A DNA stretch of 64,000 nucleotides, taken from the NCBI GenBank assembly GCA_951406725.2, contig OX597819.1, forward strand, positions 50,282,001 through 50,346,000, read 5' to 3'. Source of the DNA: Octopus vulgaris (Eukaryota). Of the stretch, positions 7,261 to 57,711 are shown in pieces. The notes under the pieces were generated by a model. That model did no database searches. It saw only the letters and a program-made list of their open reading frames with translations, and was not told where the DNA came from. Positions within the stretch are counted from its first letter, which is position 1. Each line of letters opens with the position of its first letter. The translations under genes were made by a program, and so were the position numbers.

Positions 7261-7490
7261 TTGATTCAATATGTGACCGCGTGTGTATCGATGGCGATTT
7301 TTTTCTCTCCGTCTTCCTTTCCCTGGATCTTTCTTTTTCCTATGTTTCCGACGAAGAGCTCCGCTCGAAACGTTAAATCCTCCTTCTTTCTTTCCTTTCC
7401 TGAGCGTCCAATAACACTATACTTGTTCCACGTCCTCGCGTTGTTGTGTCTTCTCTTTATGTTTTCAGGTTTGGATTAACTATATATATG
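7261..7490 (+). mobile_element. Short (TA)n-anchored element with hammerhead-like motif (Penelope pLTR/retrozyme-like)
   Basis: Contains ccgacga-a-gagc-tcc-gctc-gaaac-gtt-aaat (7348-7378) and is flanked by (TA)n on both sides. Its 3' part recurs inverted at about 6900-6995 and 23020-23082. Confidence 0.65.
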
Positions 7491-8149
7491 TATAGATAGC
7501 TAGCTAGCTAGATAGATAGATAGAGAAATATATACATAAAGATAGATAGATCGATAGATAGATAGATAGATAGATAGATAGATAGATAGAGAAATATATA
7601 GATAGATAGATAGATAGATAGATAGATAGATAGATAGATAGATAGATAGATAGATAGAGATGGATGGACATATAGATAAACAGATAGACTGACAGACGGA
7701 TAAATAAATAGACAGATAGACAGAGAGACAGACCGTTAAATAGATAGAAAGACAGAAATAGATATATAGATAGATAGATAGATAGAGATGGATGTGTAGG
7801 CAGATAGACAGACAGACAGATAAACAGACAGACTGACTGATAGAGTAGTGATAACGAAATGTAACTACAGATAAATAATGGTGTGAGTGAGAAGCACGTT
7901 CGGTATTGTAGATTGAAATAAAACTGACAATAGAAAGATGTGGAAGAAGGGAGTGTTAGAAGAAGGGGTTAATGACAGTTGTGGCGTATAATGGGGACCT
8001 AAGTGAGAACAACCCCGCCCTCACTAACGCCATCAATTAAGGGTTCATCAAAGATATATTTATTTATCAAGATGATGTGAAGAGGTCGGGCACAGAGTGG
8101 ATACTCATCAGAAACGTTGGAGTTGGGTTGGTGTGATTGGACGAAGTGG

Positions 8150-8745
8150 AGAGTAGGGAGAGAGAAAGAAAGAGAGAGAGAGAAGAGAAAGAAGGTAAGC
8201 AGGTAGGTTGATAGATAGATAGAGAGAGGGAAGAGAGAGAAGGTAGGCAAGTAGGTAGCTAGATTGATAGAGAGAGGGAAGAGTGAGAGAGAGAGAAGAG
8301 AGAGAGAGAAGAGAGAGAGAAGGTAAGCAAGTAGGTAGATAGATTGATAGAGAGAGGGAAGAGAGAGAGATAGAGAGAGAGAGCGAAAGTTAAGGTAAGT
8401 AGATAGATAGGTAGAGAGAGAGAAGGTGAGCAAGTAGATAGATAGAGAACAAGGGGGGAAGAGAGAGATAGAGATAAGAGAGCGAGAGAGAAGAGAGATA
8501 GAGAGAAAGAGAGAGAGAGAAGGTAAGCAAGTAGGTAGATAGATAGAGAGAGGGGGAAGAGAGAGAGAGAGAGCGAAAGAGAAGGTAAGTAGATAGATAG
8601 ATAGAGAGAGGGGAAAGAGAGAGAGAGAGAGGAGAGAGAGAGGGGGGAGAAAGAGAAAGAACGAGAGAGAGAGAAGATAAGCAAGTTGGTAGATAGATAG
8701 ATAGATAGATAGAGAGAGAGAGAGAGGGGGGAGAGAGATAGAGAA
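8150..8745. repeat. GA-rich degenerate minisatellite (aggtaagcaagtaggtagatagatag unit among GA runs)
   Basis: Unit recurs about 7 times. Confidence 0.8.
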
Positions 8746-9149
8746 ATTTAGCAACTAATTCCAGCTGATCAAGTGACCATGTGGAAGCTTGGGTGATGGT
8801 GATGATGATGACCATTTTGTCATAATGGTGGTGACGGTGGGGGAGGGTTGATTTCGTGATGGTGGTTGGCAGTGGTGTGACGATGATGTTGATAATGATG
8901 CTGTCATGGTGATGGTTGACGTCGTTGTTGTGGTGGTAGTGGTAGTGATAACGGTGACACAGGTTGTGTTAGTAGAGATGATGGCAGATTGGTAGGGTGA
9001 TGGTGATGGTGGTGACGGCGGTGGCGGTGGTAGCGATAGTGGTTTATTTTTTTTAAAAAGGGGCAAGCAGAGGTGATATTCGTGGTGTAGTAGTGTCCAC
9101 GAGCAAGAAAGAAGCGATGGTAGTGTTGGTAGAAGTGGAGGTAGGGGCG

Positions 9150-9566
9150 TTGTGATGGTTGTGATGGTGTTGCAAATTGTAGTGTCAGAGGTGGTTATGC
9201 TAGAAGTGATGGTAGTGGTAGTGGGGGTTGTAATAGTGGTGGTGGTAGTGGTGGCAGTGGTGGTGGAGATGGTGGTGGGGGTGATGGTAGTGGTGGTGAT
9301 GATGGTGGTGGTTGTGATGGTGGTAGTGGGGGTTGTGATATTGGTGGTGGTAGTGGTCGTGGCGATAGTGGTGGTTGTGAAGGTAGTGGTAGTGATGGTG
9401 GTGGAGGTAGGGGTAATGGGGGTTGTGATAGTGGTGGTTGTAGTGGCGATGATGGTGGTGGTGGTGATGGTGGTAGCGGGGGTTGTGATAGTGGTGGTGG
9501 TGGTAGTGTTGGTAGCGATGGTGGCAGTGGTGATTGTAGTGGTGGCAGTGGTGGTGGTGGTAGTGG
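9150..9566. repeat. (GGT/GAT/GTA)n tract with recurring ggggttgtgatagtggt
   Basis: Direct reading; gives poly-V/T/H pseudo-ORFs. Confidence 0.9.
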
Positions 9567-9914
9567 GATGACATGCGATTGTTTGGAAGGAAGAAGAAAA
9601 AAAAGAATACGGAACATACAAGTAAATAACAAATAAAACAAAAAAATGAATCTCAAAACATAAGTTAAAAAAAACGAACAAATGTGAAGAATTGGCACAA
9701 AAGATTCTCTGACAAATATGAATAATTGAATATATAACAACAACAATAACAACAACAATAATATTAACAGTAAATGATAAATTGATGAATAAACATTTAT
9801 TAATATGAAAAATGTAAGCAATCATACATCTGCGCGTGAGGTGTGTGTATAATATAATTTATAATATGTTCTGTCTGTCTATCTCTCTACCTACTTACAT
9901 ATATATGTATATAT

Positions 9915-10105
9915 ATAGTCAGTTCAAATAAACAATCAGTTTAAATAGGTGAATGATAAAATTAACGGACAACGAGAGGATATGCACGAGAAATGTGTTA
10001 CCTTGACGCTCGGTGAAAAGAGAGTTTGACTCTCGTGTATGGCTCTTCGTCGGAAAGGAGAAAGGGAAACGTTCAAAGAAGGAAAAGTAATCGCCAACAG
10101 CATAG
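9915..10105 (-). mobile_element. Diverged relative of the 7261 element; hammerhead 3' half lost
   Basis: Minus strand reads tggcgatt...tttccgacgaagagcc...gagcgtcaa...cctctcgttgt, collinear with 7290-7450, and ends at a TA run. Confidence 0.55.
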
Positions 10106-10527
10106 GTGTGGTTGCATTGTTAGAAGTAAATGACGTAGCAAAGATATCGTCAGAGTAAAATAACTCTAGAGAATTTATTTATGCTGATACCCCAGCGCTA
10201 ACATCACATCGCTTAATCGTTAAAGATACCCTTCTCATTGCACGCTGAACTTATACTTATAGTATTGTGTTTCTGCCAGCAATCCGATTTTTCCAGATAA
10301 ATCGAATTGGTGTTTCGTCCGGAAGAAATCATAGAAAGAATGTGGAAGTAAATTATTGATATAGCTATAAAAGCCAGACTACGTCAGTCGATTATGATGA
10401 ACAGCAGTAACTTCCATATTATACATTTGATAAGTCTAAGTGTAAATCAGATAACAAATAAAATTACACAACGGGTTGCTAAAATTAATATTAAAATTGT
10501 GAAGCAGAATTCATGAAATTCCTTTAC

Positions 10528-10734
10528 TCTCGTAGAAAACTGTGCGACGTTGTCTATTGTCTATAAATAAATAATCTTTTTTTCACGTGTTCTTTCTATG
10601 TTATTCCCCTGATGATGTTAATTCCGTTAATCTCGCAGAAAACCGTGCGACGTAGTCTATTGTCTATAAATAAAGAAATAATATTTTTTTCACGTGTTTT
10701 TTCTATGTTATTCCCCTGATGATGTGTCATTCCG
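10528..10734. repeat. ~103 bp tandem duplication
   Basis: tctcg(t/c)agaaaac(t/c)gtgcgacgt...ttcccctgatgatgt...attccg occurs twice head to tail. Confidence 0.9.
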
Positions 10735-10799
10735 ATTTATTTATAAAAATTGCTTTGCCTTTAGAACTACGAGGTAATTTCTGTGGGTGTAAGTTTTGA

Positions 10800-56289: not shown

Positions 56290-56460
56290 GCTGTGCGTAT
56301 AGATGTATGGTAAGGAAGAGGTTCGTTTCGTAAGCTCGTCGTACTGGTTTCGATGCGACCTGCGCTGCACTTCTGGCAAAGGTATTCTACGAAAACATCA
56401 TCAATGTTTTGTGAAAGAAATGCGATTGATGGTAATCGTGTCGAAAGAAGCCCGTCGTGT
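56290..56460 (+). mobile_element. SINE family A 5' part running into (TATG)n (56460-56740)
   Basis: tggtaaggaag...ggtttcgat...gaaagaagcccgtcgtgt. Confidence 0.55.
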
Positions 56461-56741
56461 GTGTATGTATGTATGTATGTATGTATGTATGTATGTATGT
56501 ATATATGTATGTATGTATGTATGTATGTATGTATGTATGTATGTATGTATGTATGTATGTATGGTATGTATGTATGTATGTATGTATGTATGTATGTATG
56601 TATGTATGTATGTATGTATGTATGTAAGTATGTATGTATGTATGTATGTATGTATGTATGTATGTATGTATGTATGTATGTATATATGTATGTATGCATG
56701 TATGTATGTATGTATGTATGTATGCATGTATGTATGTAGTG

Positions 56742-56957
56742 ACGAGAGGTTGCTGAAAAGTTTGTTGCTTCAAGGGTATCACGAAAGACCTGGTTGGAGG
56801 CCCTGTCTTCTGAATAATTTTACAGGGCTTAAAAAACTGAAGGACCGCTGCAATACGTGTGTGAATTTGAGGGGAATATGTTGAATAAAATAATTAATTA
56901 ACTGACCCTCCTGCTTTTTCTTTTACTCAAAGCCAGGAACTTTTGTGCACCCCGCCC
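56742..56957 (-). mobile_element. mariner-derived MITE, copy 2
   Basis: Reverse-complement homolog of 41257-41478; retains the transposase C-terminal remnant GLKKLKDRCNTCVNLRG. Confidence 0.8.
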
Positions 56958-57040
56958 CCCTTGTGCGTGTGTGTGTGTGTGTATACATTACTTACATTAT
57001 TTACATTCGACGGATATTTGTCCTCATGTTGTTCGTTGTT

Positions 57041-57086
57041 AACACAACGTTTCGGCTGATATACCCTCCAGCCTTCTTCAGGTGTC
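57041..57086 (-). ncRNA. Minimal type I hammerhead ribozyme, canonical core
   Basis: Minus strand: GACAC-CUGAAGA-A-GGCUG-gaggguauau-CAGCC-GAAAC-GUU-GUGUU. Stem I GACAC/GUGUU, stem II GGCUG/CAGCC, palindromic AACGUU stem III. Confidence 0.8.
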
Positions 57087-57326
57087 TTGGGGAAATTTCG
57101 AACCTGGATTCTCATTCCTAATTTTTTTCTGCATCTACATAAGAAAGTTAGATGGTTTCAAAGACGAGCTAGTTTTTGATGGAGTTTCTCTATACGTCTC
57201 CATTGAAGTCTAATGTCAGATCCGTACCGATTAGATAATACAGTTCTATATTTCAGAGATGAGGAATTATGTACATTATTTACATTATTTACATTTGAGA
57301 TATTTATCCTCATCTTGTTTGTTGTT

Positions 57327-57372
57327 AACACAACGTTTCAGCTGATATACTCTCCAGCCTCCTTCAGGTGTC
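57327..57372 (-). ncRNA. Hammerhead copy 2 (core CUGAAGG, A9>G)
   Basis: GACAC-CUGAAGG-A-GGCUG...CAGCU-GAAAC-GUU-GUGUU. Confidence 0.65.
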
Positions 57373-57418
57373 TTGGGGAAATTTCGAACCTGGGTTCTAA
57401 TTCCTAAAATTTCCCCAA

Positions 57419-57464
57419 GACACCTAAAGAAGGCTGGAGGGCATATCAGCCGAAACGTTGTGTT
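57419..57464 (+). ncRNA. Hammerhead copy 3 (core CUAAAGA, G5>A), inverted
   Basis: gacac-ctaaaga-a-ggctg-gagggcatat-cagcc-gaaac-gtt-gtgtt. Confidence 0.65.
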
Positions 57465-57711
57465 AACAACAAATAAGATAAGGACAAATATCCGTCGAAT
57501 GTAAAGAATGTAAATAATGTACATAATTCCTCATCTCTGAAATATAGAACTGTGTGTATGTATATATAGACGTTAGAATTTGAAGCTTGGGAGCGATCTG
57601 ACTCTACCAGAGTCTCGTGTTGACCAATGATTTGCGAGTAAAACTTGGCTGAAAGACACCCTGTAGAAACCCTCCGATTATATGAAGCAGCTTAAGTTTA
57701 TGAAGCTTGGT

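Follow-up and report, generated by a model that had tools for sequence, protein, structure and literature searches.

Introduction

Eckert et al. (2023, PMC10085705) describe the hammerhead ribozyme as three unbreakable blocks with six possible orders. Their block C, which consists of a helix I strand, the CUGANGA core and a helix II strand, is contiguous, and no insertion of more than 1–2 nucleotides (nt) is known there. One of the orders, type SGC (HRIMA-1), has a short linker between helices I and II, typically of 3 nt, and an extra helix that joins the two. Hammerhead variants with additional helices exist (PMC13725137), and the pistol-like pseudoknot hammerhead (Zhan et al. 2024, PMC11300833) keeps A9 and G10.1–C11.1 together in a short stem whose loop makes the pseudoknot; its block order is not called rearranged. 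The metazoan retrozymes that lack long terminal repeats (non-LTR retrozymes) carry type I hammerheads and mostly form circles of 170–400 nt (PMC7229834), while Li et al. (2026, bioRxiv 10.64898/2026.07.22.740005) give consensus lengths that reach 972 bp, and both sources propose Penelope-like elements (PLEs) as their mobilisers. In squid, 235 Rfam hammerhead matches are listed (PMC6962438).

Here we analyse 64 kb of the Octopus vulgaris genome (assembly GCA_951406725.2, contig OX597819.1, positions 50,282,001 to 50,346,000, forward strand), hereafter the window, which is part of a genome of 2.8 Gb in 227 contigs. An earlier note on this DNA had listed seven full and three partial hammerhead motifs, and the sequence features at all ten coordinates are present as it described. 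We find it probable that the window holds truncated PLE ends together with repeats without an open reading frame (ORF) whose RNA is predicted to fold as a rearranged hammerhead, likely one that cuts itself. The minimal hammerheads at PLE ends, which the note stressed, have been known since 2014. The value lies in the motifs set aside as partial: they belong to a retrozyme-like family of high abundance and offer a candidate topology that the six published permutations do not include.

Anatomy of the predicted rearranged hammerhead

The motifs at 31700 and 32190, together with a copy at 48.6 kb that had been missed, belong to ORF-less units with a predicted rearranged hammerhead that is apparently new. 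The two listed motifs had been taken for partial ones; their relatives carry a complete, rewired hammerhead. The three window copies are as follows.

31395–31819 (+), family E2 copy, 5′-truncated, ends at (TA)n; helix II 5′ strand at about 31634–31638, predicted cut after 31654, GAAA position 31672–31675, CUGAGGA 31700–31706
32072–32835 (−), family E1 copy, near unit length, ends at (TA)n, upstream limit approximate; rearranged hammerhead from about 32256, where the helix II 5′ strand lies, to 32184, where CUGAGGA ends; cut predicted after about 32235
48428–48841 (+), family G1 copy, same rearranged topology as in E in an unrelated sequence; helix II 5′ strand 48572–48576, core position 48641–48647

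Among the relatives of the E copies, the order in the 5′ to 3′ direction is UH site, GAAA, CUGANGA. The block order is the non-circular site–GAAA–CUGANGA of type SGC, with helices I and III in register. Read from the 5′ end, a helix II strand starting at G10.1 is followed by a linking-helix strand and then by helix III, U16.1–H17 and helix I; after 3 to 5 nt come helix II, GAAA and helix III, the second linking strand, and finally helix I with CUGANGA. As read from the alignments, the motif is a predicted type SGC hammerhead whose strand is opened between A9 and G10.1, with the helix II and linking strands placed at its 5′ end. A type I reading of 31700 and 32190, in which the other half of the core would be a GAAUGAC lying downstream, was rejected: it leaves no helix I, and its helix II is unconserved.

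Twelve representatives from four sequence lineages (E1–E6 including E3b, G1–G3, H and I) were compared. In all twelve the helix II strand that starts with G10.1 precedes the cleavage site and does not follow A9, the linker between the helix I and helix II strands is 3–5 nt long, and the base preceding G10.1 is G. The helices themselves differ in sequence. E1 has GGCUG/CAGCC in helix II, GCAAU/AUUGC in helix III and UCAAGA/UCUUGA in helix I, the last of which is UCGAGU/ACUCGA in E2; E3 has GGGCA/UGCCC, ACCGU/ACGGU or ACCAU/AUGGU, and UCAAGU/ACUUGA, respectively, and G1 has GAAGG/CCUUC, CGCGU/ACGCG and UUGUCC/GGACAA.

The motif and type SGC (PMC10085705) are alike in the site–GAAA–CUGANGA order, the short linker between helices I and II (3–5 nt here), the full core and, possibly, the extra helix that links the far sides of I and II. 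They differ in that the helix II strand here lies 5′ of the cleavage site, which places the form outside the six permutations; a helix II strand within 0–2 nt after A9, as block C has it, is lacking in 12 of 12 representatives. The settings differ as well, in that the ribozymes of Eckert et al. were found near metatranscriptomic hairpin ribozymes, whereas E and G sit in animal retroelements in thousands of copies. As in the pistol-like hammerhead (PMC11300833), a pseudoknot located outside the three-way junction would support the core of the motif, but here A9 is not continuous with G10.1. No account of a hammerhead opened between A9 and G10.1, or of the octopus motifs, was found in the literature searched, with Lunse 2017, Weinberg 2015 and supplements outside its scope, and novelty is provisional to that extent. 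Within the parts available, Forgia 2023 and bioRxiv 2026.09.16.752053 describe no such topology, the word hammerhead has no occurrence in PMC13282606, and PMC6765202 and PMC10162972 hold nothing relevant.

Covariation and conservation of the predicted fold

Alignment A1 comprises 54 of the 68 full E regions (E1, E2 and E3). In it, 92.2% of helix cells pair, against 16–44% in controls with slid partners, and nine of the 21 pairs change on both sides (four in helix II, three in helix III and two in helix I). Three of the two-sided changes in helix II are carried by 10–14 copies and one by a single copy. Between E1/E2 and E3, three positions of the upstream strand change together with their partners on the GAAA side. 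All three core blocks are kept in 43 of the 54 copies. Across the twelve representatives, CUGANGA, G10.1–C11.1 and U16.1–A15.1 are present throughout and GAAA in eleven, with N7 the sole varying position of CUGANGA. The upstream helix II strand forms 5/5 pairs in ten representatives and 4/5 in two, always starting with G10.1–C11.1. The linking helix has 3–8 bp in all twelve and is 92.6% paired in E.

A competitor for the upstream strand is the sequence directly after A9. In an ordinary type SGC hammerhead those bases, or a second molecule, would supply helix II, and the upstream strand would be a bystander. In all seven E representatives the bases after A9 form only 1–2 of five pairs, and the covariation at three positions belongs to the upstream strand. 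G, H and I offer 3–4 weak pairs there; in G1, G3 and I the count reaches 4/5, of which two are Watson–Crick and others G–U, which gives a weak standard alternative. One sampled copy (L354; such codes denote genomic loci compared with the window families) does score as standard SGC, although it is truncated upstream. A descriptor without helix II, specifying helices I and III and the core, gave 46 matches, 28 of them with an upstream partner starting in G and one with a partner after A9. On this balance we regard an ordinary SGC hammerhead as improbable. The same helix-II-free descriptor found the unrelated families G and H; family I came from a later scan.

Chance complementarity in AT-rich repeats is a further explanation to be weighed, as the helices are short and a relaxed descriptor gave one false match in a microsatellite and four matches in eight shuffles of 800 kb. 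The full descriptor with a perfect core matched six times in an 800-kb genome sample (five at score 19) and never in 60 shuffles of it (48 Mb). Given also the compensatory changes and the recurrence of the pattern in unrelated lineages, we consider chance an extremely remote explanation. The sixth match (score 17, family J) does not fit the model on inspection and counts against it. Family J (e.g. L004, L205, L260 and L344) is an abundant repeat, one strand of which can be read as a three-helix junction with GAAA and a deviant 5′ core.

Carrier units and their arrays

The E and G carriers are head-to-tail units of 720–843 nt without a conserved ORF; some are TA-anchored stubs, others stand in arrays that hold up to five ribozymes. 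Unit lengths are 720–726 nt in L396, 752 nt in L327, 755–807 nt in L397–L401, 758 nt in L243, 788–792 nt in G and 843 nt in L358. The ends of E and G lead into a UA-rich stretch, which is short, and then into a fixed tail; a pyrimidine tract and a CACGTGAC motif follow before the ribozyme is reached again. At least two consecutive complete ribozymes occur in L396, L358, L327 and L397–L401. L396 has five ribozymes and four units that are 98.6–99.6% identical, with a truncated 5′ end and (TA)n at the 3′ end; its one long frame (197 aa) is absent from three of the four units. We infer that this pattern is what a single reverse transcriptase (RT) pass several times round a circle would leave, the alternative being local tandem duplication.

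E and G show the hallmarks of PLEs, namely TA anchoring, inverted 5′-truncated partners and shared 3′ tails. A 30-base segment of E1/E2 has 3,111 exact genomic matches and its reversed control none. The family is present in contigs of four sequencing runs, each from a different organism, and in X19 the helix I letters of E2 predominate; a metagenome scan for the E pattern gave 0 matches. No ORF-bearing parent of the E/G units was found among the loci examined. Two E2 copies separated by 5.5 kb, and two G1 copies separated by 15 kb, were considered as ends of an autonomous element and set aside, as no PLE frame was seen between them; an adjacency at L237 of E/G/H with GIY-YIG was likewise rejected as an ORF link and looks like an insertion.

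Like metazoan non-LTR retrozymes (PMC7229834; 10.64898/2026.07.22.740005), these are ORF-less head-to-tail units with one hammerhead each, present as monomers and multimers. They differ from them in their length of 720–843 nt, TA targeting, PLE-like tails, inverted stubs and a ribozyme that is not of type I and would be missed by type I descriptors. The earlier note had proposed dedicated non-autonomous mini-elements; ORF-less retrozyme-like units do exist in E and G, while its A and B families are truncated 3′ ends of Neptune-type PLEs whose longer copies run into the ORF (see below). A classical non-LTR retrozyme lies at L194:2300–4600 (C1, 20.00 Mb), a tandem of about 359 bp with seven motifs on both strands and canonical-core type I hammerheads; it has relatives in L200 and L211 and no Rfam gathering match.

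Family I is of another kind. It is the 3′ untranslated region (UTR) of a young non-LTR element (L371–L395, e.g. L372:1180–1700), with copies about 97% identical. The frame of this element ends in what we take, by its motifs, to be a restriction-like endonuclease domain (Pfam zf-RVT E 0.03–0.06 only). Family I is not TA-anchored (3/23), and no covariation has been detected in it so far; a 6-bp helix follows A9 directly in 22 of 23 copies. A second GAAA...GUA block stands at the very 3′ end of its 3′ UTR.

Families A, B, E, G and H have a (CAC)GTGAC(C) motif in common, 60–350 nt upstream of the ribozyme. This motif is E-box-like; it may act as an internal promoter or as a signal that the RT recognises.

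Proposed mechanism and points against it

Under the mechanism we propose, the rod formed by helix III and the linking helix would form first, and its apical loop would then pair with both sides of the internal loop, making helices I and II as two pseudoknots. This double pseudoknot would build the normal G8/G12 active site and cut after UH. Since the catalytic groups of the hammerhead are the G8 2′-OH and the G12 N1, as seen in a crystal structure (PMC11300833), a break after A9 would leave them in place. Cuts at successive sites would free a unit-length RNA, and its ligation would give a circle. In trans, an endonuclease/RT of the Neptune type would nick (TA)n, prime at the short internal UA-rich stretch of the unit and copy round the circle, leaving mostly 5′-truncated stubs and an occasional near-identical array. 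We judge cleavage at the UH site to be likely, and mobilisation of E and G in trans by a Neptune-type protein to be probable, if slightly less so.

One alternative is a real fold that does not cleave. It would stem from a hammerhead and serve the PLE RT as a signal for protein binding or packaging, and template jumps or read-through transcripts, in place of circles, would give rise to the arrays. In vitro, PLE hammerheads cleave slowly (PMC4209133), and family A has reached an estimated 45,000 copies in spite of A6U in 60 of 66 copies, so that a perfect core is perhaps unneeded for spread. Set against this, E, G, H and I keep all catalytic core bases and the UH site while every helix changes, as selection for cleavage predicts, and we hold a non-catalytic signal to be unlikely.

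Besides the alternative pairing in G1, G3 and I and the misfit of family J, several observations weigh against a self-cutting rearranged hammerhead. All three window copies are decayed, with G12A and mismatches in helices I and II in the E2 copy, A15.1C and a helix III mismatch in the E1 copy, and decay in the G1 copy as well. The 54 copies of A1 represent about three subfamilies, and the cell counts overstate the number of events; by a pair-count measure, A1 has nine pairs versus 8.6 when shuffled (271/500 shuffles), which is no excess. The representatives were chosen by descriptors that require helices I and III, and support for those two helices is partly circular. Within E, two-sided changes are lacking in the linking helix, which differs from one lineage to another only. 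Pseudoknot-free minimum free energy (MFE) folds pair part or all of the core in all twelve representatives, and the shuffle z-scores of MFE folds are mostly weak. A conserved helix IV, or an upstream anti-core switch, was rejected as a general feature, as it stands out in just 3 of 11 representatives, and a helix that holds A9 near G10.1 is clear in family I only (22/23 copies). Among the loci examined, none was found in which a GIY-YIG frame has an E, G or H ribozyme at its 3′ end, and the protein partner is a proposed one.

Significance

We lean, with some reserve, towards reading the self-cutting rearranged fold as a seventh natural hammerhead wiring that would be active, would drive a large family of TA-targeting circular-RNA retroelements, and would have arisen or been captured at least twice (in PLE-dependent units and in a non-LTR 3′ UTR); neither current descriptors nor Rfam models would detect such forms, which animals may commonly have. 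The paper that enumerated the hammerhead permutations assumed that the CUGANGA block is inseparable from helix II, and a natural, covarying, high-copy exception would widen the known topologies. As far as the literature searched goes, it would be the first non-circularly permuted hammerhead found in an animal genome or retroelement. Ribozyme censuses would then miss a class, which gives a lead for PLE ends called half-core or hammerhead-less. Eight Naiad PLEs, for instance, are listed as HHR_half_core, with a second core half on either side at 35–50 nt (Craig et al. 2021, PMC8557442); by analogy, some of these ends may be rearranged hammerheads. The young near-identical arrays are suited to tests of the proposed PLE-driven rolling-circle model.

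Coding Penelope-like elements and their ends in families A, B and C

Six of the seven motifs listed as full are, as their flanking sequences indicate, 5′-truncated ends of protein-coding PLEs; the one at 38802 has no family. The corresponding features of the window are given here with a decayed stub and an endonuclease remnant.

7264–7486 (+), family B 3′ stub, Neptune-type PLE, minimal type I hammerhead at 7348 (U4C here)
9919–10110 (−), decayed A/B-like stub (motif 10050), 5′ core half retained, GAAAC half lost
14243–14433 (+), family A 3′ stub, Neptune-type PLE; the minimal hammerhead (14304) has the A6U shared across the family
16116–16273 (+), second family A copy, damaged stem II (16150)
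23016–23082 (−), family B 3′ stub whose truncation point lies downstream of the ribozyme
38690–38985 (+), lone weak minimal-hammerhead-like motif (38802) behind an old repeat
56984–57407 (−), family C, Poseidon-type pseudo-LTR (hammerhead 57367), ORF start 57240–57128 (one stop), second pseudo-LTR (hammerhead 57081)
57407–57553 (+), family C inverted 5′-truncated pseudo-LTR, hammerhead 57424 (G5A), in the usual PLE head-to-head layout
59154–59231 (+), GIY-YIG remnant of 26 residues with an internal stop (the 59093 remnant)

A strict minimal-hammerhead descriptor (core with at most one mismatch, stem II of at least 3 bp, GAAACGT, stem I of at least 3 bp) is matched by three of the seven, those at 7348, 14304 and 57081, and by none of 200 local dinucleotide shuffles. 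Of these three only 57081 has a canonical core, 7348 having U4C and 14304 A6U. Damage is seen in the remaining four, namely a mismatch in stem II of 16150, A9G and C11.1U in 57367, G5A in 57424, and in 38802 a stem II of only 2 bp together with a poor stem I. The ribozyme part of 38802 has no relatives, as 17 of 17 matches span just the upstream 108 nt, and the stub at 10050 has two relatives among the loci examined at 68–75% identity. The claim that all the motifs are minimal type I hammerheads stands for families A, B and C, which are of the PLE type, and falls for 31700 and 32190, which are rearranged and not type I.

The earlier note had suggested extension in the 5′ direction to PLE coding sequence, and this succeeds: A, B and C join RT/GIY-YIG frames. 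For family A, 6 of 25 loci picked by UTR carry a frame upstream (five with linker finger/GIY-YIG by tblastn and one with part of the RT). For family B, all 25 loci picked by ORF continue into the UTR, and eight of them reach the ribozyme within 1.5 kb. L140 was rejected as an ORF link for family A, its A copy being a separate insertion behind another family's end. Both A and B partners have a CX2-5CxxC linker before a C-terminal GIY-YIG. We call these frames Neptune-type partly on our presumption of what such frames look like, beside the linker motif; the Neptune-type and Poseidon-type labels are drawn from motifs and not from an RT tree. In L187, which served to test the Neptune clade for the partners of A and B, Pfam GIY-YIG has E 0.0013, below the curated cut-off. 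Because the CX2-5CxxC linker, which typifies Neptune and Nematis PLEs (Craig et al. 2021, PMC8557442), is present, we assign A and B to the Neptune type. Family C matches L138 at 91%, and since L138 has an RT and a GIY-YIG without the finger, C is assigned to the Poseidon type. In agreement with the Neptune and Penelope/Poseidon clades (PMC8557442), GIY-YIG is C-terminal, with CX2-5CxxC in A/B partners and absent in C, and the microsatellite bias, tandem and inverted insertions and tails of 30–40 bp are alike.

The families also resemble the minimal hammerheads of PLE pseudo-LTRs (PMC4209133) in the extra base at 9/10.1, G10.1–C11.1 and a palindromic 15.2–16.2, all of which are present here with a loop-less palindromic helix III, and in having many families per genome, mostly as solo truncated copies, with opposite-strand pairs 100–700 bp apart. 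Family A differs by its fixed A6U: the core is CUGUNGA, with U in place of the canonical A6, in 60 of the 66 copies examined, while N7 varies. A natural A6C hammerhead variant has been reported as slow (Perreault et al., PMC3088659). A family related to A (L196) has canonical A6 and a similar ORF upstream. Another Neptune-type family (L140:1840–1890(−), L068) has a U3–A8 core variant and an ACCGGU palindromic helix III.

Family C, which had been described as having no ORF, encodes the start of a PLE ORF at window 57128–57240 (−), and its hammerheads at 57367 and 57081 are separated by 286 nt. In loci L031–L054, found by a search biased towards it, a joint recurs at which the sequence, after its first ~35 codons, returns to the pseudo-LTR (reference positions 262–316, most at 280). 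The joint is possibly a non-autonomous Poseidon derivative of about 290 nt.

TA targeting was scored as (TA)3 within 24 nt of the 3′ end, for which 8000 background positions give 713 (8.9%). The claim that the elements target TA microsatellites is borne out for A (47/59), B (34/36), E1/E2 (49/58) and E3 (16/22) and does not extend to family C, with 3/64 termini, some of them from overlapping loci.

The element at 59093, credited in the earlier note with mobilising all of these, is present as a remnant that matches the endonuclease type of L247 (E 2.6e-8) and has no significant match with a Neptune-type query. It is of a third endonuclease type, unlike the partners of A, B and C. More type I hammerhead families, in which helix III is a short stem-loop, occur in the L247 3′ UTR and at L226:9880, and one of them adjoins a GIY-YIG of the same type as the remnant.

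The note's overall view, that one system of TA-targeting, non-autonomous minimal-hammerhead mini-elements is mobilised by the 59093 element, can draw on the TA anchoring of A, B and E, on the shortness of most A/B copies (21 of 21 sampled B 3′ ends align over at most 219 nt) and on the possible non-autonomous unit at the family C joint. The running of A, B and C into PLE ORFs, the missing TA anchor of C, the different endonuclease at 59093 and the non-type-I ribozymes of E and G speak against it. It is largely refuted for A, B and C, and as a whole we consider it very improbable.

Copy number and other features of the window

Copies were counted by BLAST with ribozyme-centred natural copies against the 800-kb genome sample. 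It contains 61 core-containing copies, or about one per 13 kb: 13 of A, 20 of B, 9 of C and 19 of the rearranged type, seven of these with the whole ribozyme region. This is about half the density of the window. The earlier estimate of a very high copy number holds, with the window about twofold denser than the sample. Extrapolation to the genome gives about 45,000 copies of A, 70,000 of B, 32,000 of C and 67,000 of the rearranged type (25,000 whole), with wide Poisson intervals and some clustering. The roughly 147,000 core-containing copies of A, B and C, decayed ones included, compare with 4,000–9,000 in coelacanth and Xenopus (PMC4209133), where counting rules differ. A separate 400-kb sample was drawn at round-number positions chosen by hand; a minimal-hammerhead descriptor similar to the strict one gave 23 matches in 400 kb against 0.23 when shuffled, with 7 of the 23 in one tandem array.

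In an Rfam scan of the window at E ≤10, a hammerhead is absent among the 150 of 453 matches listed, and ten family loci gave 0 matches at the gathering score. Short tandem repeats make up 27% of the window, and a 107-bp tandem duplication at 10517–10734 contains CTGATGA without matching helices. Abundant interspersed repeats resembling short interspersed nuclear elements (SINEs) lie at 4993–5422, 17570–17742, 37076–37431, 41626–42030 and 43275–43623. A broken-up reverse transcriptase of a long interspersed nuclear element (LINE), unrelated to the hammerheads, occupies 49155–50845 (+) (Pfam RVT_1 E 1e-15).

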